Part shown: positions 8,804-22,754 of the stretch, one piece after another
How positions within the stretch are numbered: position 1 is the first letter of the stretch
Layout of the letters: every line of letters begins with the position of its first letter
Origin: a virus
Lineage: Duplodnaviria > Caudoviricetes
DNA length: 28,480 nt
Strand: one strand, 5' to 3'
Virus record (IMG/VR): IMGVR_UViG_3300005573_000240
Span: 1 to 28,480 of that record
The notes under the pieces: generated by a model
Databases searched by the model: none
What the model was told of the DNA's origin: nothing
What the model saw: the letters and a program-made list of their open reading frames with translations, nothing else
Translations under genes and position numbers: made by a program

Positions 8804-8985
8804 GAGCGGCCCGTGCCCCCCTTGCCTCGACGCTTCCGTCTCCCATCCGCGCGGAACTCGAACCACGCGATGATTTCCCCCAGGGCCGCGATGCACTCAG
8901 AGACTGACTTGTGCGGCCTGCATCTGAGACCACAACGGGGACAGACGCTTTGATCCGCCCGTATGTAATCCATCGTCCTCCTCAC
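8800..8985 (-). CDS. Small zinc-finger-like hypothetical protein
   Basis: 61 aa, CPRC...H....C; 4-bp start/stop overlaps with both neighbours. Confidence 0.55.
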   Translation of the reverse strand: MRRTMDYIRADQSVCPRCGLRCRPHKSVSECIAALGEIIAWFEFRADGRRKRRGKGGTGRS

Positions 8986-10058
8986 GCAGGCACCTCCTTG
9001 ACGGCGCGCGTCAGCCCGCGCTTTCGCTTACCAGCGCACGAGCATGGCACGACTGCGTGCCGAAAAACGTAGATCGTTCCGCCGCAATCAGCGCAGCACA
9101 CGCTCTCTTGGAGCGCCCAGTAGGGGTCAGGGCGAGCCCTGGCCTGCACCCACTTCGGAAGATCGCCAATGGCGGAAAGGAACAAGCCGTCACTGCGCGG
9201 AGGAGCGCCTCGAGCCCTCTCGGCAATCCATTCGGCCAGGTATCGCGGATGAATGCCGGCGGCAGCAGCCGTCTGAAGCAGCTTTAGGGCCGTGCCGTCC
9301 CGAGGCGGCTTCCCCACAGCTTGCTGGAGAGCGGCTGTGATGTCCGCTACGCAGTCCGTTGTCTCCGGCGGGCTATTACCAGCTTCCGTAAGAGCCGGCC
9401 GGCTTGCCGCTTCCGCTTCTGCTTCCGCTTCTATATCCGCTTCCGCTTCTGCTTCCGCTTTGGGCTCGCCTAAGGCACGCCTAAGGTTTGCCTTTGGCTC
9501 GCCTAAGGCACGCCTAAGGCACGCCTTAAAGTTACGGTTTATATCTTCCATCGAACTTGATGATTCTTCAGAGCTTGCAAACTCACCAGATGTTTCGCAT
9601 GCTGATCCACCGGTGGAACCGCAGTCATTGTCCGAGCAAGGCCCGCCTTGGGCTTGCCTTAGGTTGGCCTTAGGCACGCCAAAGGTTTGCCTTTGGCTCG
9701 CCTTAGGCTCGCCTTGGTCAGCATGCGGAGGCGGAGGCAGTTCGGAAGGGGCCTCTCGTGGGTGCACCTTCTGGTGACGGGCAAAATTGACCACCTGGAT
9801 GCAGCGCACACCGAGCGCCTCATACCGACAAATGAACCCCATGCGATCTAGCTCCCCAAGCCACTGATCGACCACCGCGTCAGTGACATCGGAGCGCCAT
9901 GGGAACACCATGCCCGCGATCATACGCGGAGAATCTAGCAGCCTACCGTCCCGGTCTGCCGCGCACCATAGGCCAGCGAAGAGGAAATGAGCGCCGATTG
10001 GCAGCGCTGACAATAGCTGGTCCTCAAAGTATACAGGTTTGAGTAATCTCGCCCTCAT
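8982..10058 (-). CDS. Phage replication initiator (replisome organiser-like) with internal origin repeats
   Basis: N-terminal MRARLLKP.YFED...LFAGLWCAADRDGRL.D...NFARHQK wHTH typical of phage initiators; central repeats and an (AE)n tract; AGGAG RBS. Confidence 0.8.
   Translation of the reverse strand: MRARLLKPVYFEDQLLSALPIGAHFLFAGLWCAADRDGRLLDSPRMIAGMVFPWRSDVTDAVVDQWLGELDRMGFICRYEALGVRCIQVVNFARHQKVHPREAPSELPPPPHADQGEPKASQRQTFGVPKANLRQAQGGPCSDNDCGSTGGSACETSGEFASSEESSSSMEDINRNFKACLRRALGEPKANLRRALGEPKAEAEAEADIEAEAEAEAASRPALTEAGNSPPETTDCVADITAALQQAVGKPPRDGTALKLLQTAAAAGIHPRYLAEWIAERARGAPPRSDGLFLSAIGDLPKWVQARARPDPYWALQESVCCADCGGTIYVFRHAVVPCSCAGKRKRGLTRAVKEVPA
9457..9721. repeat. Two arrays of about 7 x 11-bp iterons (consensus GCCTWWGGYNN) flanking an AT-richer spacer; putative origin of replication
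   Basis: 9457-9533 (e.g. gcctaaggcac x3, gcctaaggttt, gcctttggctc) and 9645-9721 (gccttaggttg, gccttaggcac, gccaaaggttt, gcctttggctc, gccttaggctc), inside the initiator gene. Confidence 0.8.
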
Positions 10059-10077: not shown

Positions 10078-10303
10078 GTCCCGTTTTGTCCCAAATTCGG
10101 TTCACTTTTGCCTTTTGCGTCCCGTTTTGTCCCATTTGCAATCACGGTATGTCCTTTATTTTCAACGCTCCTGTCCGTAAGTGATTGATCTGCGCTACCT
10201 TGACACGGTAGAGGTCTGGCGTTCAAATCGCCACGGGCCCACCATGTTTTCAACAAGTTACCAATCGCACTCATGAAATCGCGTCCCGTTTTGTCCCATT
10301 TGC
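10078..10303. mobile_element. attP site: tRNA-derived core with arm-type repeats and IHF-like sites
   Basis: GTCCCGTTTTGTCCCA at 10078, 10119 and 10283 on both sides of a tRNA 3' fragment; near-consensus WATCAANNNNTTR sites at 10178-10190 (minus) and 10248-10260 (plus); directly downstream of the integrase. Confidence 0.88.
10192..10244 (+). tRNA. 3' fragment of tRNA-Val(GAC) serving as the attP core; not a complete tRNA
   Basis: Anticodon arm CTACC-TTGACAC-GGTAG, variable loop AGGTC, T arm TGGCG-TTCAAAT-CGCCA, acceptor 3' strand CGGGCCC-ACCA. The 5' acceptor strand and D arm are absent. Confidence 0.9.
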
Positions 10304-11512
10304 CAACAAGGTAGAGGTCCTCATTCTGTCTCGTAGGCGGTCAACCACCTGCATCTCACGCCGCAGATCCTCGAGCGTATACTGCGCCGTAATGGCCGGA
10401 CGGCTGTGCCCAGCCTGGCGCATAGCTTCCAACAGCGTGGCGCCGCATTCTTGCCTCCAGGTGATCGAGAGCCGGCGTAGGGTGTGTAGACCAAATCCCG
10501 TGTGGTAGATTCCAGCCCGTCGCGCTGCCGGTCTCCAGACGTTCTGCTGTAGGTCGCGGTCATCGGGAATGCGTCCATCTGCCCGCGCGAAGACAGGATC
10601 ATCTGGCAAGCTGGTCTCAGGCCTTCGGAACAGAATCTCGTCTGCCAGCGGACCAATGTAGCGCTCGCGGCGGCTGCTTGTGGTCTTTGGATCGTCGATG
10701 TTCCCGCGCGCGTAGCGCCGCTCAATCCGGACCGTGCGCTTGGCTGCATCGATGTCGCTCCATCTCAGCCCCAGGGCTTCGCTGACCCGCAGGCCGGCGA
10801 CAAGACACAACTCCGCCAGCTGCCGCGCCTGCCACGCCGGCATGATGGACGTGTCGCGGATCTCATCGAGCCATCTAAGAATTTGTTCTTCCGTCGGCCT
10901 CGCGAACTCGCGCGCCGGTAAACCTCCGCGCCCTACGGGAGCCCCATGGGCAGGGTTCTCCCCAACCCATATGCGCCACTCGGTGGCGCACCGGAAGATG
11001 GCAGCGAGGAGATTGCGCAGATCGAGCCTGGTCGCCCGGCTGAGACTCGACTTCGCGAGCAGCCATTCTGCGATGACAGAGCGATCGATCTCTCCAAGCC
11101 GAAGATGCCCGAGGTCAGGCAGGATGTGATTGCGGAGGTGCGCCTCGTATTTGGCCCTAGTCGTGGATGCGAGGGTAGGCACGTGAGCTGCACGAAACCG
11201 CTCGATCACCGCAGCTAGCGTAAGCTGCGATGCAACGGTTACCTGACCGCCGTTGATCGTGGCCATGATCTCCGCCTTGCGCTTGCGCGCCTCGCGCAGC
11301 GTGATCTCGTCGCAGTAGCCGAGCCTTATTCGGCGGCGCACAATCTCCACCCGCCCGTCATCTCGGACGATACGTACGTATGGTCTGATCTCGTAATACT
11401 GCCGGCGGCGGCCGGCGCGCTCAATGTGTGGGTCCTGATACCGCATGAGCGTATCATCCCACTCAGCGAGCGCCAGCGCGAGACGGGGGTCAGGCATGGG
11501 CCAAGCGGTCAT
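10271..11512 (-). CDS. int: Tyrosine recombinase / phage integrase
   Basis: 413 aa; GLRVSEALGLRWSDID (R), DPKT (K), HTLRR (HxxR), AGHS (H), TAQY (Y); core-binding region YEAHLRNHILPDLG. Confidence 0.95.
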   Translation of the reverse strand: MTAWPMPDPRLALALAEWDDTLMRYQDPHIERAGRRRQYYEIRPYVRIVRDDGRVEIVRRRIRLGYCDEITLREARKRKAEIMATINGGQVTVASQLTLAAVIERFRAAHVPTLASTTRAKYEAHLRNHILPDLGHLRLGEIDRSVIAEWLLAKSSLSRATRLDLRNLLAAIFRCATEWRIWVGENPAHGAPVGRGGLPAREFARPTEEQILRWLDEIRDTSIMPAWQARQLAELCLVAGLRVSEALGLRWSDIDAAKRTVRIERRYARGNIDDPKTTSSRRERYIGPLADEILFRRPETSLPDDPVFARADGRIPDDRDLQQNVWRPAARRAGIYHTGFGLHTLRRLSITWRQECGATLLEAMRQAGHSRPAITAQYTLEDLRREMQVVDRLRDRMRTSTLLANGTKRDAIS

Positions 11513-11952
11513 GCTCCACCCCCGATATCTTTCCAGTCCAGCCCAGGCATCCCGGAGAGGATCAGGTCCTCAATCCTAGCTGCCACGGCTACATTCCATC
11601 CGCGCCTGCGCGCATCGGAGACCCAGATCTCCTGCGATTTGCGAAGCTTCCCGCCCGGGCGCTTGACTTCGATGTACCAGCAATGGCATGGGCCGAATGG
11701 ATCGCACTGCCGAATGGCAATGTAGTCCGGCGTCCCAGCCTCCTCGCGCTTCACATTCGCCTTTGGTCCGCGCAGGTCTGCCTCGAGGCGGTGCACGCGC
11801 CAGCCGTGATAGCGGAGGAAGTCACAGATCTGTTGGGCGACTTGATTCTCGGTCTGCCGCGAACCGGAGAATGACACATAGATCTTCCTCCGGTCCCGGG
11901 CGGCGCGCTGCTTCGCGCAGATTTCCTCTGCCATTTGGTCAGGCACGTCCAT
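11509..11952 (-). CDS. VRR-NUC (PD-(D/E)xK) nuclease
   Basis: TENQVAQQICDFL..GW, GTPDYIA, YIEVKRPGGKLRKSQEIW motifs; ATG at 11952 preceded by GGAGG. Confidence 0.88.
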   Translation of the reverse strand: MDVPDQMAEEICAKQRAARDRRKIYVSFSGSRQTENQVAQQICDFLRYHGWRVHRLEADLRGPKANVKREEAGTPDYIAIRQCDPFGPCHCWYIEVKRPGGKLRKSQEIWVSDARRRGWNVAVAARIEDLILSGMPGLDWKDIGGGA

Positions 11953-12994
11953 GCGCCGTCCCTCCACCTGTTTGATCCGGCACCTCATCCCATGTGCGGG
12001 CGTCTAGTATCCGCCCCGCATTCCGCTTGCCGACGCGGTATACATACACCTCTCCGCAATCACTTGCGCCACCCGTGCGTCCGTTCCATGCTGTGGTTTC
12101 ACCGAAATAATTGCCAGCGCGGTCCAGGATGCCCCAGTGCGCTCCAGTGTTTCCAGCCGTGGGCTTATCGCCATCCGCGCCAAACTGGTCCTCAGGAAGC
12201 CACTCGCCCCATTGCTTGAAGAAAAATGGAACCCGCGCCGCCTTGCACTGGTCGCGGATCTGTCGAACCCAATCCGGATGCGTAGGTCGTGCTCCAGGCC
12301 CGGGCTCGCCACCGACGATTACCCAGTCGAGGTAACTGTCCTTGGGGCTGCGGGACTCACGCTCGATCTCGAGTATAGGCAGCCAAGTGTACAGATCCAC
12401 AGGCCCCAGTAACGGCTCGCACGATACGAACCTCAGGGCTGCCGGCGTCGCGAGCAGCTCCGGCACCCGCACCTCCGCCGCGCGCTGGTCCTCCACGCTC
12501 ACTCCCAACCACACGTTGGGCAGCGGCCATGCCTCCAACATACGAAACCCGCGCAAATGCCCTAAAAACCGAGCCTTGTTCTCAACCCGCTCCCGAGCCG
12601 AGCGTCCCACGTCAGCCAAAAACCGCCGCATTCGCTCCGCGCGCTTGGTCAGCACCATAAACACGTGCTGCGGTTCCAGCGCCATCACTGCAAACACCTG
12701 CTCAATCCATTCGTCCCGCGCCCCCTCGTGAAACAAATCCCCCATCGAGTTCACAAACACCCGCCGCGGCCGCTGCCATCCCACCGGCTCCATCAGCTTC
12801 TGCCCATTCCCCATCTCTACCCGGCCAGTCCACCGCGGCCCACTAGCACTAAACTGTGCCAGTCCGTCTTCCCCTGAACAAAACCGCGCCGCAATCCGCT
12901 CGGCGTAGCAGTTCCGGCAGCCCTCGCTCACGCGCGAGCATCCACGAATCGGATTCCATACGGCGTCGGCCCATTCGATCTTAGTCTTGGACAC
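11939..12994 (-). CDS. Phage Gp37/Gp68 family (DUF5131) protein
   Basis: TKIEWAD..WNPIRGCSRVSEGCRNCYA, FVNSMGDLFH, LTKR, NVWLGVSVEDQ, RFVSCEPLLG, DWVIVGGE and PFFFKQWG motifs. Confidence 0.93.
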   Translation of the reverse strand: MSKTKIEWADAVWNPIRGCSRVSEGCRNCYAERIAARFCSGEDGLAQFSASGPRWTGRVEMGNGQKLMEPVGWQRPRRVFVNSMGDLFHEGARDEWIEQVFAVMALEPQHVFMVLTKRAERMRRFLADVGRSARERVENKARFLGHLRGFRMLEAWPLPNVWLGVSVEDQRAAEVRVPELLATPAALRFVSCEPLLGPVDLYTWLPILEIERESRSPKDSYLDWVIVGGEPGPGARPTHPDWVRQIRDQCKAARVPFFFKQWGEWLPEDQFGADGDKPTAGNTGAHWGILDRAGNYFGETTAWNGRTGGASDCGEVYVYRVGKRNAGRILDARTWDEVPDQTGGGTAHGRA

Positions 12995-13745
12995 CGCTAC
13001 TTCTCCTTGCTCGTAGAGGCTCTAATTCAAACTCGGTCTGGTTTTCCGCCGGCATGGTGCACATAGTCTGGTTGTTTCTCTGCCAGTAGGATGGACGGAA
13101 TCCATATAGCATCCTCGGGCCCTTGTAGCCGAGTTCAGCCGGGACAGCGCGCATAAGCTTTCCCTCCGGACCGGCGACTGACCAGTCCTCAGACCACGGC
13201 TGGACGTCCCACCGCAGCACAGCGCCCCACCCTTGGTCGGTCTTTTTCCCCAGATGAGTCGCAAATCTTAGCAGCTCCGCGAGGCTCGGACGGTGGCCGA
13301 CTACGTACCACCGCGCGAAAATCGCATGCCTGTAAAAGACGGGCATGTGATAGGCCTTGTAGCGGCCACTCGACTCTTGCACTGCGCCCCATTTGCTGTC
13401 AGGGCCAACCAGGTCCGCGTGCTGGAAATCAAAGCGGCAATTCCAGAATTCCGATCCGCGCGCGACTGGTTCTGACCATTGCGCGAATGAAGCTGCATAG
13501 AACCACATTGGCTGGTGGCCGTTGATGCGCTTAAGCGGAAGCTGGACTCCGGGTACCGCATTGGGATGCGGCACGCCGCTGTAGGTCGCAGTGCGGTCGC
13601 CGTACTTCTCACGCATAGCTATCGAATACAGCACACCGTCCAATGGAAGCATAGCGTCGGAGATGACACCGCACTGGAGCCACGCCGTGATACAGAGTGG
13701 TTCGAACGCCGAGTCCGGAAGCCTGCGATAGGTGCCCTTGTTCAT
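12981..13745 (-). CDS. csf3: Type IV CRISPR-Cas Csf3 (Cas5-group RAMP)
   Basis: EPLCITAWL...LPLDGVL, LPL.R, WFYAAS, SGRYKAY, WYVVG, Gly-rich loop HLGKKTDQGWGAV, LMRAVP, RPSYW. ATG at 13745 overlaps the ibrB stop (ATGA). Confidence 0.85.
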   Translation of the reverse strand: MNKGTYRRLPDSAFEPLCITAWLQCGVISDAMLPLDGVLYSIAMREKYGDRTATYSGVPHPNAVPGVQLPLKRINGHQPMWFYAASFAQWSEPVARGSEFWNCRFDFQHADLVGPDSKWGAVQESSGRYKAYHMPVFYRHAIFARWYVVGHRPSLAELLRFATHLGKKTDQGWGAVLRWDVQPWSEDWSVAGPEGKLMRAVPAELGYKGPRMLYGFRPSYWQRNNQTMCTMPAENQTEFELEPLRARRSSGVQD

Positions 13746-14398
13746 TCCCGGATCTCCCATGCCTCCGAGAACTCCTCGTTGGCGAACAGGTCAGCCAAGC
13801 CGCCGATCTGCTTGAATCGCAGCACCTCATCAGGGTCCATGCCCAGCTCTTTGGCGATTTTCGCGTCGCTCCAATTGCGGCGCGACAGCTCAAGGACGAT
13901 CTCCGTCATCGCATCGACTTGGTGTCGTCCCCTGGCGCGGTTGTGCCGGATCGTGGCGGCCATCCGATTGTCAATGTCGCCTCGTTCTCCACGCACTGCT
14001 ACGATCGGCAGATACCCACGAATTCGCTCGCGCACGGCTTTGCACTCACGGCCCACCCGATTGCGGTGAAAACCGTCTACGACCGTATACTCGCCGGCCT
14101 CCTCAGGGTAGGCAACGATCGGCTGTGTGTAGCCATCAAGCGTGATGGAGAGCTCCAGGAGTCTCATCTCTGGCGGAGCCACGCGGTTCGGGTTGTATGT
14201 GTTGGCCCGTACACGCTCGGCTGGCACCCATTGGAGGCAATCCACGGGCTCGGAGGCGAACGGGCTATGCTTGGCCAGCTCGCGGCGCAGAGCGTTTATG
14301 GCTTCGATGCGTTCCGGCTCTTCAAGTCGATCGAGTTCGGCGAATAATTCAGAACATCCTTCAACGATTCTGTCGATTGCAGTTGTGCTTTCTCCCAT
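13742..14398 (-). CDS. ibrB: IbrB/YbdM-like ParB N-terminal-domain protein
   Basis: SPFASEPVDCLQWV, ANTYNPNRVAPPEMRLLELSI..DGYTQPIV, VVDGFHR, RMAATIRHNRARG, IAKELGMDPDEVLR; AAGGAG RBS before ATG at 14398. Confidence 0.9.
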   Translation of the reverse strand: MGESTTAIDRIVEGCSELFAELDRLEEPERIEAINALRRELAKHSPFASEPVDCLQWVPAERVRANTYNPNRVAPPEMRLLELSITLDGYTQPIVAYPEEAGEYTVVDGFHRNRVGRECKAVRERIRGYLPIVAVRGERGDIDNRMAATIRHNRARGRHQVDAMTEIVLELSRRNWSDAKIAKELGMDPDEVLRFKQIGGLADLFANEEFSEAWEIRE

Positions 14399-15597
14399 CG
14401 CTTTCTCCTTGCCTCCACCAGTCGCTTGTAGCGCTCCGGGTCGGCGCTCTTGAGCTGCGAGAATGACAGCCCCTTGCACCAGTAGTCATTCCGCAGCAGC
14501 GCCTTTGCGATGCGCCTCCAGCTCGGCACCTTTCGCGCGGCCTCCAGCTTTGGATCTGCCTCATCTGGGATAGTGGTCACTCCGCGCGAGGCCCACCAAT
14601 TGATGAACGTGTCAATGCGAGCCACGTAGTGCTCTCGCATGTGCTCAGGCATTGTGGCCAGGAGCAGTTTCGAGAACGACTGCCAAGTATGATGATCGGG
14701 CTTAGATACCCTGAGGTTGCCGCACATATTCCCGGCCTTATGCGCATAGAGTGCGCCTGCGTTGGCTCCGTTGACGCGCGCGACCACGCGGCCCCACGTC
14801 TCCGGCTCGATCACGTGAAAGAGATGAAGCCCCTTTCGCTGGTCATCTCCATACGGCTGGCAAATTCTCATCTGATGAATAGTCAGACCAGCCAGGTGCA
14901 TGCGGTCGTAGAGCTGGTTGTAGCGTTTGTGGGGATGCTTGGCGTGATAGATCCAAATGTCCCTGGTGCGCCAATCGTAAATTGGGTAGACATTGACACA
15001 GCCACCGCGCTTCACCGACGTCCATTTCTTTCCCTCGACGCACGCCTTTTCCGCCATCAACGTGCGGAATCGGTTTAGCGACTCGTCGGCGCGGATACCC
15101 ACCATGCAGGCCGCCGACTCGCCGCGCGCATACCAAGCCCCGAAGTCTTCCACGAACTCCTCAAACTCCATGCCCTCGCGGAAGAACGGGAAGGCGTCCA
15201 GATCGGTGATGGACATGGGCTCAGGCTCGCGCACCCACGCTTCCCTCTTGTTTTTGTCCCAGCAGTACCAACGCGGCTCGTATTGGCTGACTGCGTTCCG
15301 CAGGATCAGCGGCAGGGCGACCCAGTATGGCTCGGTGCAGTCTGCGTACTCGCGAAAGCAGGCCCTCACGTGATCTATGGTCAGCTTGTATTGCGCCTCC
15401 AAGTCGATGAACAGCAGCCCGAAACGCCGCCCGCGCCGGCGCGCCTCGTCAGCGGCCATATGCAGCATGACGGTGCTGTCCTTACCACCGGAGAAGGACA
15501 CATAGACGCGCTCGTAGTTGTCGAACGTCCACGCGATACGCTGCTTCGCCGCGGTGAATACGTCAATGCCGATGGGTCGCTTAAGTGCCGAAGGCAT
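14296..15597 (-). CDS. ibrA: IbrA/YbdN-like PAPS-reductase (CysH-like) protein with DUF3440 C-terminus
   Basis: PP-loop VSFSGGKDS, IDLEAQY, GIRADESLNRF, YPIYDW..DIW, MRICQPYGDDQRKGL, PSWRRI...LLRNDYWC. Confidence 0.9.
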   Translation of the reverse strand: MPSALKRPIGIDVFTAAKQRIAWTFDNYERVYVSFSGGKDSTVMLHMAADEARRRGRRFGLLFIDLEAQYKLTIDHVRACFREYADCTEPYWVALPLILRNAVSQYEPRWYCWDKNKREAWVREPEPMSITDLDAFPFFREGMEFEEFVEDFGAWYARGESAACMVGIRADESLNRFRTLMAEKACVEGKKWTSVKRGGCVNVYPIYDWRTRDIWIYHAKHPHKRYNQLYDRMHLAGLTIHQMRICQPYGDDQRKGLHLFHVIEPETWGRVVARVNGANAGALYAHKAGNMCGNLRVSKPDHHTWQSFSKLLLATMPEHMREHYVARIDTFINWWASRGVTTIPDEADPKLEAARKVPSWRRIAKALLRNDYWCKGLSFSQLKSADPERYKRLVEARRKRWEKAQLQSTESLKDVLNYSPNSIDLKSRNASKP

Positions 15598-15605
15598 GCA
15601 GTTCC

Positions 15606-16487
15606 TCACATCTGTGATAACAGACTGCGAATTTCATCGGCATGTTCACGGATGTGTTCCTCGTATAGCGCTCCGGATGGAAGCGCAAGTTCGAGCACCT
15701 GGTCGCTCCCGAAACCGGCACCGAGCCACCGATCGAGCGACGCGGACAAATGGCCCATGCCAATGTTGCCTTTGCCGCCGACGACCGGGCGCTTCAGCCA
15801 CTCTCGCAAGGCAGTAGCGAATGCGCTGAACTCCATGTCTGACGGGTCGCGCAAAACAATCTGCCAGTAAAATGTCGTTCCGGCCGCGAATGTCTCGACG
15901 TAGTACATCATCTGAGCCGTCTCGTCTGCTGCCACTGAAGGCTGCGCGAGCGACGCATTCTTGTGCTGGTCTCCAGAGTCCTCCTTGCGCGTGTACATCT
16001 CATCCTGGAGGTACTCGTGCACTGATATGGAGGCGCACTGCATCGAGGCGAAATGCTCGGGCAGCAGGTGCTTGGTTTCCGCGCAAACGGGGATAAGTTT
16101 GCCGATGTCCAGCTTGCCCGGCAGGATCGTGTTTCCGACGGCCCCGCCGAACACACTAGCAAGCGGAATCAATCGCCGGAGCCGCAGTGCCTCATTTATT
16201 CCGATGGACCTGGTTGGATCGCTGGTCAGCGATCCGCCGCTGAATAGGAAGTGGAATGCGGGCAGCGGGAGCGAGGTCCCAAGGGTCCGGCACATGTGAA
16301 GCATTCCGACATCGCGGATAATGCCACGAATTGCATTGCCGCTTATGACTGGCACCTCTTCAACGCCTCCGTCCGGCTGAACAAACTTCTCGCGGCGGAG
16401 CTTATTGTCGATGCCAAACGATTGACCGCCGTTGTGCGAAATGCTTGATATCGCGGTGGCCGCGGTGCGGCAAATATAGTTCGTCAT
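15606..16487 (-). CDS. csf2: Type IV CRISPR-Cas Csf2 (Cas7-group backbone RAMP)
   Basis: SSISH, VPVISGNAIRGIIRD, FLFSGGSL, SVFGG...LPGKL.IG..IPVC.ET, YTRKED, QMMYYVETFAAGT, Gly-rich loop VGGKGNIGMG. Confidence 0.92.
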   Translation of the reverse strand: MTNYICRTAATAISSISHNGGQSFGIDNKLRREKFVQPDGGVEEVPVISGNAIRGIIRDVGMLHMCRTLGTSLPLPAFHFLFSGGSLTSDPTRSIGINEALRLRRLIPLASVFGGAVGNTILPGKLDIGKLIPVCAETKHLLPEHFASMQCASISVHEYLQDEMYTRKEDSGDQHKNASLAQPSVAADETAQMMYYVETFAAGTTFYWQIVLRDPSDMEFSAFATALREWLKRPVVGGKGNIGMGHLSASLDRWLGAGFGSDQVLELALPSGALYEEHIREHADEIRSLLSQM

Positions 16488-16825
16488 AGCTGTTTCTCCT
16501 CGATTTCCTGTCGTCGCTTCTCATTGGCGATTCGCGCCAGCAAAACCAGCGTGGTCGCGTCCTCCCGCAGCATTTTGAGCAGATGTTTGTCTTCTCCACT
16601 CGTTACTACGGAGGCGACCGTCGCCCTGTCCTCGCTCCGTATCTCGATGGCGAGCCGCTGGGAGACCTTATCCAAGAACTTGCTAAGCGTCGAGTATCTT
16701 GCGGCGCTTCTGATGTTGTCTTCCAACTGCTGCCAAATGGTCCTGTGATATTTGACCTTGTAGGCGTCCGGAACCCCACGGAATAAGGGATAAACCAATT
16801 GCTGAGACAACTGCTCAAGCGTCAT
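16484..16825 (-). CDS. cas11: Type IV-B small subunit (Cas11/Csf4-like)
   Basis: 113 aa, predicted all-helical (IWQQLEDNIRSAA...LSKFLDKVSQRL), located between csf1 and csf2 as in IV-B loci. Confidence 0.72.
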   Translation of the reverse strand: MTLEQLSQQLVYPLFRGVPDAYKVKYHRTIWQQLEDNIRSAARYSTLSKFLDKVSQRLAIEIRSEDRATVASVVTSGEDKHLLKMLREDATTLVLLARIANEKRRQEIEEKQL

Positions 16826-17474
16826 TGCGCTGCTCCTTGGTTGCCAGAAATAAAGCCAGATAGAACTCCAGCGACCCTCGAAGGGGCTTTATCTCGCGCT
16901 CACATTCCAACCGCTCATCAAGGCAAAATCTCTTAATGCGCGATTGGGAGTAAGAGCCACTGGCAATTTCGCACTTCGAGAATCCTGCGGCATAGAGACG
17001 CTCAATCGGCCGCATAGCCGCGACAAGAGCACCCGGGAACGGGAGCGCGGATTGATCCTCGATTTGCCACCAGCCAGGCCGCGCGCGCGTGATAAGGTGC
17101 TTCTGACCGCTGATGGCGATGATCGCGACCTGCGGTTCTCTAAGCAAGCATGATAGGATCTTGCGCCTGTCACCCAGCGAGCATGGAAGCCATTCGCCAT
17201 CGACCACGAAGTGCGCATAGTTTCTCATGCGCTGCGGCTTGTCTTTGCCGACAAGTCGCGCTAGGAGCCCGTTGGCGTCCGTAAAGCAGAACTGGCAGGC
17301 GTGGCAGATGATATCGCCTGGGAGGAGCTTGTCGAAGTCGGTGAAGGTGGGGCGTACCCACCGGGAAAACGAGATTCCGCGGCTAGAAAGCCCGCACGCG
17401 CGGCAGAGCCCTGTCTCGCGCCCGAGCATTTCAGGCGAGCCGGCAGCCTGCCAGATAATCTGCGGAACCGTCAT
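16815..17474 (-). CDS. csf1: Type IV CRISPR-Cas Csf1 (Cas8-like large subunit)
   Basis: Two CxxC motifs (CRACG, ICHAC) with FTDFD between them, and SGQKHL; ATG at 17474 overlaps the upstream stop (TGATG). The track ORF starts at 17489. Confidence 0.82.
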   Translation of the reverse strand: MTVPQIIWQAAGSPEMLGRETGLCRACGLSSRGISFSRWVRPTFTDFDKLLPGDIICHACQFCFTDANGLLARLVGKDKPQRMRNYAHFVVDGEWLPCSLGDRRKILSCLLREPQVAIIAISGQKHLITRARPGWWQIEDQSALPFPGALVAAMRPIERLYAAGFSKCEIASGSYSQSRIKRFCLDERLECEREIKPLRGSLEFYLALFLATKEQRNDA

Positions 17475-17731
17475 CACTCCTCCTGCCACGGGCGCAGTGT
17501 AAACGTATCTAGCGATCTAGGGTCCACGCCCACGGCTTCTGCGGCTGAAAGAAAGCCGTTCAGGAACCCAGTCCATGGGCACGTGTCCCAATGAGGTGCA
17601 TTGGTCGTTCCGCCGCGGTATGGCATACATGTGCATCGCAGATACTCGGACCACTGATCCAAACGCCGGTTGAGCGCCTGCCTCAGGGCCTCGCGCTGCT
17701 CCTGTGCCATGTCGACTCTGATAGGCGCCAT
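17474..17731 (-). CDS. Hypothetical protein
   Basis: 85 aa (MAPIRVDMAQEQREAL...), TAATG coupling upstream and TGATG coupling to csf1. Confidence 0.6.
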   Translation of the reverse strand: MAPIRVDMAQEQREALRQALNRRLDQWSEYLRCTCMPYRGGTTNAPHWDTCPWTGFLNGFLSAAEAVGVDPRSLDTFTLRPWQEE

Positions 17732-17994
17732 TACCAACCTCCGCGCCGCGCAGCCGCCGACAGGATCAGCCAGGCTGCGCCGCAAGATACCGCAGACCAG
17801 AACGCGAACTTCCACCGTTCGGCCTGCGACTTGTAGCGCGCTTCGGAGCGCAGCGCGGCCTCGATTACCTCCTCGTAGCGCACGCAGCGCTCCTGGAGTG
17901 CGGCGATCCGTGCTTGGGTGCGGGACAGGGAACGGTCTCCGTCCGCGCTTATGCGGAGTTGGCTGAGGAACTCCAGGTCTTCGCTCGTGAACAT
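17731..17994 (-). CDS. Hypothetical coiled-coil protein with hydrophobic C-terminus
   Basis: 87 aa, in-operon; FAFWSAVSCGAAWLILSAAA is a possible TM helix. Confidence 0.55.
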   Translation of the reverse strand: MFTSEDLEFLSQLRISADGDRSLSRTQARIAALQERCVRYEEVIEAALRSEARYKSQAERWKFAFWSAVSCGAAWLILSAAARRGGW

Positions 17995-17996
17995 CG

Positions 17997-18179
17997 CTAT
18001 TCCCCCAATTCCATCTGCCGCTCCTCACCGCGGAGCTGGCGGCGATACCGCTTCAGGCACTCGAGATAGTCCGCCCTCGTCTCGCGGTACGTTTTCATAA
18101 ACTCCTGCCTGCTGCGATCAAGCTCGTCAAGCGCATCGAGGGTATCCAGCACGGCACGTTCCAGGTCTTCGCGATTCAT
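17997..18179 (-). CDS. Hypothetical protein
   Basis: 60 aa, helical, GAGGTG RBS, ATGA coupling. Confidence 0.6.
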   Translation of the reverse strand: MNREDLERAVLDTLDALDELDRSRQEFMKTYRETRADYLECLKRYRRQLRGEERQMELGE

Positions 18180-18403
18180 TGCCGCACCTCCGCATACATA
18201 GGCGTATGCTGGTTCCTGATCTCACGCCGCGCTGTGCGATACCGGCACAGAGCGCTGTCGGCAGCCTGGGCCGCGGCGTATGTGACGGCATGGGCGCGGT
18301 AGAGTGCGTCCACCAGCCGCTCGGCAAGCGATCGCTTGGTGTGCGCCACATGGATGATGGCAGCGCCCACGAGCGCTAGAGTAGCGACAGACAGAGCGAT
18401 CAT
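18176..18403 (-). CDS. Hypothetical protein with N-terminal hydrophobic segment
   Basis: 75 aa, GGAGG RBS, ATGA coupling on both sides. Confidence 0.6.
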   Translation of the reverse strand: MIALSVATLALVGAAIIHVAHTKRSLAERLVDALYRAHAVTYAAAQAADSALCRYRTARREIRNQHTPMYAEVRQ

Positions 18404-18714
18404 GCCCCCTCCTTTGGGTCCTCCCCGTCGAGCGGAACGGCGTCGAGCATCTCAGCCGCGGGCTGTGGCCCGGGAGTTGGTTCTTGCTCCCGTTCAGCCC
18501 TGGCGCGGATGCATTGTTCCGCCCTAGCTATCACGACGGTCATGGATTGCGCCAACTCGACGATTGCGCCGGAGAAATTCTGAGCGATGCGCAGAACCGC
18601 ATCGGCATCGTAGCCACCATCCCATCGCTGGTCGATGATGTTATCGAGCAGGCGGGAGATCTGCATCACGTGGTTGGTATGGCGACGAAGGAACAACAGG
18701 TCTTGCCGGTTCAT
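18400..18714 (-). CDS. Hypothetical protein
   Basis: 104 aa, ATGA-coupled to recT. Confidence 0.6.
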   Translation of the reverse strand: MNRQDLLFLRRHTNHVMQISRLLDNIIDQRWDGGYDADAVLRIAQNFSGAIVELAQSMTVVIARAEQCIRARAEREQEPTPGPQPAAEMLDAVPLDGEDPKEGA

Positions 18715-21676: not shown

Positions 21677-22255
21677 ATGCAGATATCATTTAGGCATCAC
21701 AAACATGACGGCGAGGAATACCCCCGTCATGGTGTAGTGGAAGTCGCACTGAACCGGCCCTATGAGGGCATGGTCACGGTCCGCCCGCTCCGGGGATGCG
21801 CCCCGGAGGCGTGGCTGCTCCCCCGTCTGCTTGAGGCGGCGGGAGTGGCGTCGGTGCGCTTCGAGGGCGGAGCGTACCGAGTGACCGTAGCGTCCGAGTG
21901 GCGCTATGGAACCCGCGAGATCCGTCCGCTCGGCTACACCGGGCGGGAAGGGTCTACGTCCGCCTACTGGGCCCACTACTGGGCCCTGAACCCAGACGGC
22001 TCCCGTCACCATGCGGTGGCCGGCGTCCACGTGTCCATGTGTGGACGATTGAACGAGCAGATCTGGGGATATCCAGATCTGCTGCTTTACGGGACACGCA
22101 TGGCGTTCCCCTCCCCATTGTCCACCGAAGTGGACGTGCGGGTCCTGCAGGACCCGCTACGGATCGACCACCCGGCTCCCGATGGGGAATTTGTGTTCCC
22201 CGTCGAAGGGTTCGAATATCCCGAACCTCTGGCGGTACCGAAGGTGAGTCTATGA
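21677..22255 (+). CDS. Hypothetical protein
   Basis: 192 aa, AGGAGG RBS, ATGA-coupled to the next gene. Confidence 0.7.
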   Translation: MQISFRHHKHDGEEYPRHGVVEVALNRPYEGMVTVRPLRGCAPEAWLLPRLLEAAGVASVRFEGGAYRVTVASEWRYGTREIRPLGYTGREGSTSAYWAHYWALNPDGSRHHAVAGVHVSMCGRLNEQIWGYPDLLLYGTRMAFPSPLSTEVDVRVLQDPLRIDHPAPDGEFVFPVEGFEYPEPLAVPKVSL

Positions 22256-22422
22256 AAAAGGAACTGCCTAAAACCCGCATCACGATCACCGTCACCAAGG
22301 GGCTCCAGCGCAGGCTGGAAGACGAGCGGTGGCGGCGCAGGGCGCGATCGCTCAGCGCCATGATCGAGGAACTGCTCTGGCGCGCGCTTGACGGCGCTGG
22401 AGAGAAAAAGGAGAAACAATGA
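22252..22422 (+). CDS. Ribbon-helix-helix protein (CopG/Arc-like; possible Aca-type regulator)
   Basis: MKKELPKTRITITVTKGLQRRLEDERWRRRARSLSAMIEELLWRAL shows an RHH beta-alpha-alpha pattern; coupled to the DUF1874 gene. Confidence 0.75.
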   Translation: MKKELPKTRITITVTKGLQRRLEDERWRRRARSLSAMIEELLWRALDGAGEKKEKQ

Positions 22423-22754
22423 GGTACATTCTGAACAGCGCAGTGATCACTGCACCCGGCACCTACGAGTACCGGGTGATCGACCCTACCCTGGCCCGTG
22501 CCTGGGCCGAAAAGGGGTCATTCATGTCCACAATCGGGTACACGGAGACGGCGGCGTTTGCCACCGAGCTGCTGGGCGTGCCGGTGCCGGTGAATCGGGT
22601 CATGGTCTCCATGGCCCCGGGAGACGAGGCGCTTGTGGTGCGCCTCGTGCTGCCTCCGGGCAGTCCGAGGATTGATCCGTCCGACAAGGGCCGGCTGGGG
22701 CGGCTCGTGCTCGAGGGAAATTTCGAACTCGGGCTGCTCCGGCGGCTCCAGTAG
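22419..22754 (+). CDS. acrIII-1: DUF1874 / STIV B116 / YddF-family protein, AcrIII-1 ring nuclease homologue
   Basis: YILNSAVITAPGTY, STIG[Y]..TA.F..ELLG, VPVNR, GDEALVVRL, C-terminal GLLRRL resemble B. subtilis YddF / AcrIII-1; the conserved GH appears as GY. Confidence 0.82.
   Translation: MRYILNSAVITAPGTYEYRVIDPTLARAWAEKGSFMSTIGYTETAAFATELLGVPVPVNRVMVSMAPGDEALVVRLVLPPGSPRIDPSDKGRLGRLVLEGNFELGLLRRLQ

Follow-up and report, generated by a model that had tools for sequence, protein, structure and literature searches.

What is a pair of IbrA/IbrB-type genes doing inside a CRISPR-derived operon that has no CRISPR array? The question is raised by the virus record IMGVR_UViG_3300005573_000240, a single, incomplete phage contig of 28,480 nucleotides (nt), which was analysed over its whole length (hereafter the window) and which carries on its minus strand six genes in the order csf1-cas11-csf2-ibrA-ibrB-csf3. 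In the accessible parts of the literature, array-less type IV-B loci with a cysH gene are described from plasmids and viruses, and IbrAB from phages (PMC8175902, 10.1101/780106, PMC7937560, 10.1101/2023.08.24.554615, 10.1101/2023.08.02.551345, PMC12914056, PMC12839542, PMC11437467, PMC8813620, PMC4541368, PMC9068703, 10.1101/778746). Phage-borne IV-B cases named in these texts, as far as they were available, are Skermania SPI1, Fuxivirus and a Methanoperedens virus, and a phage-borne IV-B locus with a PP-loop partner is already in print. The reviews, in the sections available, point to the CysH-like partner as the key to the role of IV-B (PMC8175902, PMC7937560). Literature searches turned up no paper that connects IV-B with IbrAB or with a ParB protein, large CRISPR surveys and supplementary locus tables being places where such loci may already be mentioned. 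Here we report that the window holds a IV-B variant from which the usual partner, CasCysH, has been lost and in which IbrAB has been gained, so that two unsolved systems, IV-B and IbrAB, could be approached together.

The operon and its missing CasCysH gene

An earlier note on this DNA had called the six open reading frames (ORFs) an array-less IV-B module, and both the gene identities and the call held up, with all six ORFs in place (Table 1), PADLOC matches ranging from 2e-16 to 3e-67 and no array in the window. The Csf2 family profile matched the IV-B Csf2 of PDB 7JHY at 9.3e-32, and the NCBIfam matches of Csf2 and Csf3 fell under the curated cut-offs (63.7 < 130 and 42 < 140, respectively). 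The second-best match of the Csf2 profile after 7JHY was a chain named 'Cas7c' in PDB 11FS/11HC/11HD (7e-25). All four csf genes are intact with their conserved motifs present; csf1 starts at ATG 17474 with a GGAGG ribosome site, and csf3 has a further in-frame ATG upstream at 13760. Neither Cas1, Cas2, Cas6, DinG nor a nuclease effector was detected among 53 window ORFs scanned with PADLOC or 30 scanned with Pfam, the PADLOC and Pfam scans likewise gave no cas10 or recD helicase in the window, and the only other PADLOC match, in a second set of 45 ORFs, was a Csx16/AcrIII-1-like protein. No CRISPR-like repeat or Rfam family was found in the 28,480 nt. There is no intergenic space within or adjoining the operon, and a promoter and terminator scan returned signals at or under chance level.

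Like the IV-B system of Mycobacterium sp. JS623 (PDB 7JHY), the phage operon has four effector subunits, is borne by a mobile element and includes a PP-loop gene as neighbour of csf3; adaptation genes, Cas6 and a helicase are likewise missing from the 28,480 nt of this incomplete contig, in which no array was detected. Unlike subtypes IV-A, IV-C, IV-D and IV-E, it contains no DinG/RecD helicase, Cas10-like subunit or Cas6. The departure from canonical IV-B lies in the enzyme slot, where the CasCysH of about 240 amino acids (aa) is absent and a 433-aa IbrA (DUF3440, Cys246) stands together with a ParB-fold IbrB.

Related csf loci were collected by Csf2 searches, which yielded 117 loci (92 distinct). 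In these the order csf1-cas11-csf2 was conserved, and the PP-loop gene CasCysH lay immediately before or after csf3 (38 and 33 clusters, respectively). With loci found later, 148 csf2 loci formed 100 clusters at 90% identity, of which 16 were truncated or too short and 84 were usable. CasCysH was present in 74 of the 84 usable clusters and absent from 10, the window included; in terms of content, 68 clusters had CasCysH only, 7 ibrAB only, 6 both (locus L214 having been moved into this class by hand) and 3 neither. The earlier note had taken the full IbrA to be the CysH-like partner itself, an identification that we abandon: the ordinary CasCysH forms a family of its own, it stands beside ibrAB in six operons, and in the window it has been lost and its slot taken by ibrAB. 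A CasCysH profile searched against all six frames of the window found IbrA only (82 bits, with free IbrAs reaching up to 108 bits), and therefore the ordinary partner is gone and IbrA is not its enlarged form. The window Csf2 nests among CasCysH-only operons, nearest to L046 and L030 (FastTree, support 85), which places the cysH loss and the ibrAB gain on the window's own branch.

In each of the 10 CasCysH-less clusters, the slot or a place beside it is occupied by some other gene for an enzyme or enzyme-like protein, namely ibrAB in seven, a radical-SAM gene in two (L212, in the slot, and L027, directly after csf3; mutually homologous at 2e-14) and, in L024, a protein in which a methyltransferase-like motif was read by eye and which has no Pfam match. 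These swaps speak for a conserved requirement for some attached modifying enzyme and against a requirement for one particular protein. Longer or fused Csf3 forms were not found among 8,000 candidates, which is weak evidence. A similar-looking radical-SAM gene, judged by eye, also stands beside CasCysH in another locus (L311:860-2017). With moderate confidence, we read the Csf complex as a scaffold bound to RNA and working together with a modifying enzyme, for which the position beside csf3 is an exchangeable slot, filled here by IbrA with the ParB-fold IbrB; gene content, homology and recurrence are the observed parts of this reading.

Recurrence of ibrAB in csf operons

A survey of ibrAB inside csf operons had been proposed in the earlier note, and the arrangement does recur, in 13 of the 84 usable clusters and in several independent lineages. 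Among the 80 best viral ibrA loci, six carry csf genes with a distant Csf2, and four of these six show the order cas11:csf2-csf1-X-ibrA-ibrB-csf3, in which cas11 and csf2 are fused, X is a small gene discussed below and CasCysH is absent. The N-terminus of the fused Csf2 aligned with Cas11 at an HHalign probability of 95, and a search with four fusion-type sequences led to 18 loci. The 15 usable clusters of this fusion clade comprise six with CasCysH, six with ibrAB only (two of them incomplete, L198 having 128 nt of downstream flank and L215 ending inside ibrA), two with both and one with neither. No description of a cas11-csf2 fusion clade was found in the available parts of the type IV literature consulted. 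One fusion-clade operon (L205/L213) has two csf3 copies flanking cysH and csf1.

Monophyly of the ibrAB-only operons of the fusion group was rejected by the approximately unbiased (AU) test (p 0.003), as was that of the seven ibrAB-only IbrAs (AU p 6e-67, against 18 free IbrAs chosen out of 102 after the larger tree was known), and the trees indicate that ibrAB-only operons arose more than once. Two CasCysH-less pairs have kept the six-gene order, with nonsynonymous divergence (dN) of the csf genes at 0.13-0.28 while the proportion of synonymous differences (pS) stands at 0.66-0.81; low dN at near-saturated pS means that the csf genes are under purifying selection without CasCysH. Counted by cluster, ibrAB occurs in 7 of 10 CasCysH-less versus 6 of 74 CasCysH-bearing clusters (Fisher p 4e-5), and counted by complete independent losses in 4 of 7 (p 0.004), both figures being ascertainment-biased.

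A rival account, which we regard as possible and on balance doubtful, is that the operon interior is a hot-spot for cargo: a self-sufficient mobile ibrAB would have landed in it, acquired the operon's expression signals and ousted CasCysH through a deletion, leaving two independent modules with Csf possibly drifting. Much of the survey is in keeping with this account and weighs against a working link between the two modules. A csf operon lies within 6 kilobases (kb) in 7 of 109 ibrA-selected clusters and 102 of the 109 are csf-free, IbrA travelling with IbrB in 117 of 125 cases; INPHARED phage records matched IbrA 223 times and Csf2 once. The csf-linked IbrAs are polyphyletic and have csf-free near relatives (L161, for example, is 81% identical to L198), so there is no csf-specialised IbrA lineage. 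Other csf operons hold further cargo, including Cas6 (three loci), SpoU-like methylase, phosphatase, Vsr-like and helix-turn-helix (HTH) genes. Of the four complete replacement events, one is the window itself and the other three first came to light through an ibrA query. Where the sample had been selected by other means than ibrA, ibrAB was present in 2 of 66 main-clade clusters, both with CasCysH retained, and in none of 51 csf3-selected loci. The window's own arrangement has no close relative that shows its maintenance, the block bearing it is entirely missing from the related phage L292, and no guide RNA was found. Among new fusion-clade clusters not chosen through ibrA, ibrAB was present in 4 of 11.

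The tight packing of the genes does not decide the matter. ATGA junctions are present at cas11/csf2 and ibrB/csf3, and csf1/cas11 and ibrA/ibrB overlap by 11 and 103 nt, so the overlapping starts and stops reported earlier are real; the csf2/ibrA overlap requires ibrA to start at GTG 15609, whereas ATG 15597 has the better ribosome site, and the flanking genes overlap alike (an ORF before csf1; DUF5131, VRR-NUC and integrase genes after csf3). Gene overlap was accordingly rejected as a sign of one functional unit, since the neighbouring phage genes overlap equally tightly, and the earlier argument for one unit from position and overlap is weak, given also that the slot takes other cargo and ibrAB is mostly csf-free.

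The window Csf2 is in part a further point for the cargo account. It evolves faster than its sisters in 7 of 8 relative-rate tests (p < 0.02; the tests are non-independent), while results for the other window Csf subunits were inconsistent. It is also shortened: one loop has 2 residues where the median is 12 (n = 22), and the thumb insert has 21 residues versus 42 (n = 36), which leaves it about 10 aa short in the loop and about 20 aa short in the insert by comparison with known IV-B. According to the accessible part of its description, the thumb insert is flexible in the Mycobacterium Csf2 (PMC7937560). The speed and the two deletions may be due to relaxed selection as well as to adaptation to a new partner. 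Of all Csf2 thumb inserts, that of L024 was the shortest.

Against the cargo account stand the other enzyme or enzyme-like gene in all 10 CasCysH-less operons, which is a CasCysH homologue in seven, the purifying selection on csf genes in CasCysH-less pairs whose synonymous sites are near saturation, the intact state of the four window csf genes, and the composition of the window's ibrAB module. Of the 87 free ibrAB loci with full flanks, 82 have a third gene, either X (44) or Y (38), the two being mutually exclusive, and three of the remaining five have an SNF2-like gene upstream. X is present in 16 of the 16 nearest free relatives of the window IbrA with known context, a count that does not include the contexts of the eight closest, P0121-P0128. 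Unlike free IbrA/IbrB, the window pair sits inside a csf operon, and no match to X or Y (best E 0.74) or, in Pfam, to SNF2 was found in the window; with CasCysH missing as well, each of the two modules here is without its usual partner. In the six fusion-clade ibrAB-only operons X is kept, which means that Csf has not replaced X there and is a further point against the scaffold reading. Taken together, the link between ibrAB and csf is recurrent but loose, and not obligatory.

X and Y are two unrelated small protein families. Neither matched a Pfam family or a Cas11 profile, X matched a single PHROG of unknown function, and the Atlas gave no usable match; no fold was found for them. In P0153, X is fused to IbrA. 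An apparent loss of X/Y in csf-linked loci (7/11 versus 5/87, Fisher p 1.5e-5) was rejected as a signal, several of the loci with both CasCysH and ibrAB belonging to IbrA lineages that are always without X/Y.

A proposed RNA-bound scaffold with an exchangeable enzyme

The scaffold reading draws on the homology of the two alternative partners. CasCysH and IbrA were aligned by HHalign with a probability of 99.8 (E 1.1e-27) over 220 columns, covering IbrA residues 12-279 and extending beyond the end of the best PDB CysH/CysD matches (profile position ~192-196 of 243). The AlphaFold model of IbrA (pLDDT 78.5) matched flavin adenine dinucleotide (FAD) synthase, APS/PAPS reductases and CysD over residues ~6-260, with VIA Z 13-15 and a root-mean-square deviation of 3.5-6.1 over 168-185 residues. 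Across 125 IbrAs the PP-loop residues vary hardly or not at all, and Cys246 is present in 122 of the 125; CasCysH has no cysteine at the aligned place. Judged from the sequences, this missing cysteine is in line with the proposal that CasCysH is an adenylating enzyme (PMC8175902, section 7, the part available), and IbrA likely supplies the Csf complex with the same predicted ATP-dependent adenylating activity as CasCysH. The window IbrA is 55-67% identical to many viral IbrAs; a degenerate DNA pattern for its subclade had 0 matches in viral contigs.

For IbrB, the Pfam ParB_N match (2e-4) was under the cut-off and no solved structure matched it by sequence. Its model (pLDDT 83.7) matched Noc, KorB, ParB and sulfiredoxin together with an HTH, with a Foldseek value of 1e-7 to Noc and VIA Z of 9.7 for sulfiredoxin and 9.4 for KorB. 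In the model, the N-terminal nucleoside triphosphate (NTP)-binding fold and the HTH appear alike to those of Noc, KorB, ParB and sulfiredoxin, at 13-22% identity.

The pair resembles the E. coli YbdN/YbdM-type IbrA/IbrB, in which a PAPS_reduct plus DUF3440 protein is likewise followed by a ParB-like protein. The original work on the E. coli proteins reportedly concerned co-activation of prophage gene expression, an annotation that is also found on E. coli-type IbrA/IbrB records. Like the DNA-acting enzymes of the phosphorothioation systems Dnd, Ssp, BREX type 4 and Tdp (the last known by citation only), IbrA is a PP-loop enzyme of the PAPS-reductase family, with weak PADLOC matches to BrxP (4e-6) and DndC (8e-5), and Dnd and Dpd systems, in the texts as far as available, have ParB-superfamily partners too. 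The criterion given for Dnd/Ssp/BREX-4 in the accessible part of PMC12914056 is a PAPS-reductase protein with a P-loop NTPase partner (DndD, SspC or BrxC); unlike these systems, the window has no such ATPase, its PADLOC scans gave no other Dnd, Ssp or BREX gene, and IbrA matches no more than short stretches of their models.

In the mechanism that we propose, the Csf scaffold would bind RNA and hold or mark a substrate nucleic acid, most probably the DNA or RNA of the phage early in infection, given that the operon lies between recT and the integrase gene. The Mycobacterium IV-B Csf complex assembles on heterogeneous RNA of 55-60 nt, according to the portion of the report available (PMC7937560). 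The PP-loop of IbrA would then adenylate the substrate, and Cys246, absent in CasCysH, may serve a further step, for example sulfur transfer. IbrB, in the manner of ParB/KorB, would bind NTP and DNA and bring IbrA into position. The Csf complex may stand in for the small third protein of the free ibrAB modules, and the outcome would be a protective mark versus host defence. The slot beside csf3 would be exchangeable, accepting CasCysH, IbrAB, a radical-SAM enzyme or a methyltransferase-like protein, and if RNA guidance were true, this would be a natural RNA-guided modification system. A bolder form of the proposal, rather unlikely in our judgement, takes IV-B systems as RNA-programmed carriers for interchangeable 'writer' enzymes, CasCysH being a cut-down IbrA that uses Csf instead of IbrB and the third subunit, into which this phage re-plugged the full IbrA-IbrB with its ParB-type clamp; if true, this would be a complex derived from CRISPR and guided by RNA that modifies bases or backbone and whose DNA clamp is of the ParB type.

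RNA binding by Csf might also serve other ends. The complex alone could soak up host CRISPR RNAs (crRNAs) or other small guides, with ibrAB co-expressed as a separate counter-defence, an idea put forward for IV-B in the available parts of 10.1101/780106, PMC7937560 and 10.1101/2023.08.02.551345. The phage plausibly meets CRISPR defence, since it has an AcrIII-1/DUF1874-like gene (22419-22754, plus strand); we nonetheless hold such a sponge to be decidedly unlikely, given that it leaves the enzyme gene (PP-loop or other) of essentially every operon unexplained, that the Mycobacterium complex was without crRNA enrichment in the accessible account (PMC7937560), and that the AcrIII-1-like gene has Tyr for a conserved His.

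Most unlikely of all, in our estimate, is a conventional crRNA-guided system that silences targets with crRNAs taken from host arrays or from an array on the phage genome beyond the contig. The contig is incomplete, cas6 is present in three related operons (L004, L005 and L109), and the Fuxivirus IV-B locus has a mini-array according to the available text; however, the window has neither cas6 nor array, no array was seen in the flanks of the three cas6-bearing operons, and repeat-spacer-repeat candidates were in no excess (5 of 100 csf clusters versus 6 of 74 control loci). The sole real array among the csf clusters, in L051, is beside a Cas12f/TnpB-like gene: the gene and, after it, the array of ~7 repeats occupy L051:7875-9700, ~3 kb downstream of the csf operon. 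A phage TnpB-like gene also adjoins an apparent Csf1-Csf3 fusion ORF (L341:1257-2402; L342:5071-6219) with no csf2 or cas11 detected nearby.

The phage contig and neighbouring genes

The contig encodes a gpA-type terminase, a lambda-type portal, a protease-capsid fusion, a tyrosine integrase, RecT and YqaJ. Neither a tail tube gene nor a tape-measure gene was identified on its 28,480 nt. Its sequence is present in two hot-spring metagenome runs, possibly its source. In run X1, which may be the source of the window, a 7,756-nt contig covers the whole operon with 0 differences, and in run X2 a 5.3-kb contig has all 4 of its differences within 15 nt of csf3 (window 13277-13291), each of them residue-changing. 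No IbrA match was found in three metagenome-assembled genomes.

Table 1. Positions of the operon genes and of further features (window coordinates unless a locus is named)
Feature	Position	Strand	Evidence or remark
csf1, Cas8-like large subunit, 219 aa	16815..17474	-	PADLOC Csf1_0_IV 2.3e-16; conserved columns kept
cas11, small subunit, 113 aa	16484..16825	-	PADLOC Cas11_1_IV 5.6e-26
csf2, Cas7-like backbone, 293 aa	15606..16487	-	PADLOC Csf2_0_IV 3.2e-67
ibrA, PP-loop SGGKDS enzyme, 433 aa	14296..15597	-	Pfam PAPS_reduct 1.2e-14 and DUF3440 1.9e-36
ibrB, ParB/Srx-fold domain with DGFHR motif and HTH, 218 aa	13742..14398	-	PHROG 2159, ParB-like, 2.5e-70
csf3, Cas5-like RAMP, 254 aa	12981..13745	-	PADLOC Csf3_0_IV 7.8e-46 and alignment
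Accessory block with operon, DUF5131, VRR-NUC and small ORFs, between recT and integrase	11513..18710	-	Comparison with L292
Likely attP core, 3' half of a tRNA-Val(GAC) gene by eye	10192..10244	+	Beside integrase 10271-11512
Fusion clade, Cas11 fused to Csf2 N-terminus, csf1 after fusion gene	L198-L215, L127, L147, L151, L166, L258		
Radical-SAM genes, Radical_SAM_N2 type, by csf enzyme slot	L212:4182-5528; L027:9712-11253		Two far-apart CasCysH-less operons
Methyltransferase-like motif gene in slot	L024:3826-4290 (154 aa); L297:4167-4649		CasCysH-less operons; 37% identical
cas6 inside IV-B operons	L004:8945-9592; L005:9678-10355; L109:7919-8638		
X and Y, two small protein families	L251:5618-6019 (X); L170:607-1017 (Y)		Unrelated to each other

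The related phage L292 has an integrase 83%, a RecT 73% and a YqaJ 73% identical to those of the window, and because it holds between recT and integrase just two small ORFs, different from the window's, the 7.2-kb operon-bearing block is accessory. A nearly identical tRNA-like core follows the integrase gene of L292; ARAGORN found no whole tRNA gene in the window. The tRNA-like core beside the window integrase reads as a likely attP, and the phage is therefore probably temperate. Inside a replication-initiator-like gene (8982-10058), 11-bp tandem repeats with inverted arms at 9407-9725 are likely origin iterons.

Overlapping csf3 is a DUF5131 gene (11939-12994, minus strand), which shows a CxxxCxxC-like motif as well as a radical-SAM mobile-pair match. 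It was rejected as a component of the system, since one of the 117 csf loci and none of the 80 ibrA loci have it nearby. The AcrIII-1/DUF1874-like gene was recognised through Pfam STIV_B116-like (1.9e-12), PADLOC Csx16 (4.7e-17) and AFV3-109 (1.3e-8). In its product Tyr replaces the conserved His of the S-x-I-G-H motif, the residue that we take to be His47 of SIRV1 gp29. His47 is catalytic in that protein, according to the part of its description available, and the window protein may bind cyclic tetra-adenylate (cA4) without cutting it. A 56-aa ORF with the look, by eye, of a small DNA-binding regulator (22252-22422) precedes this gene.

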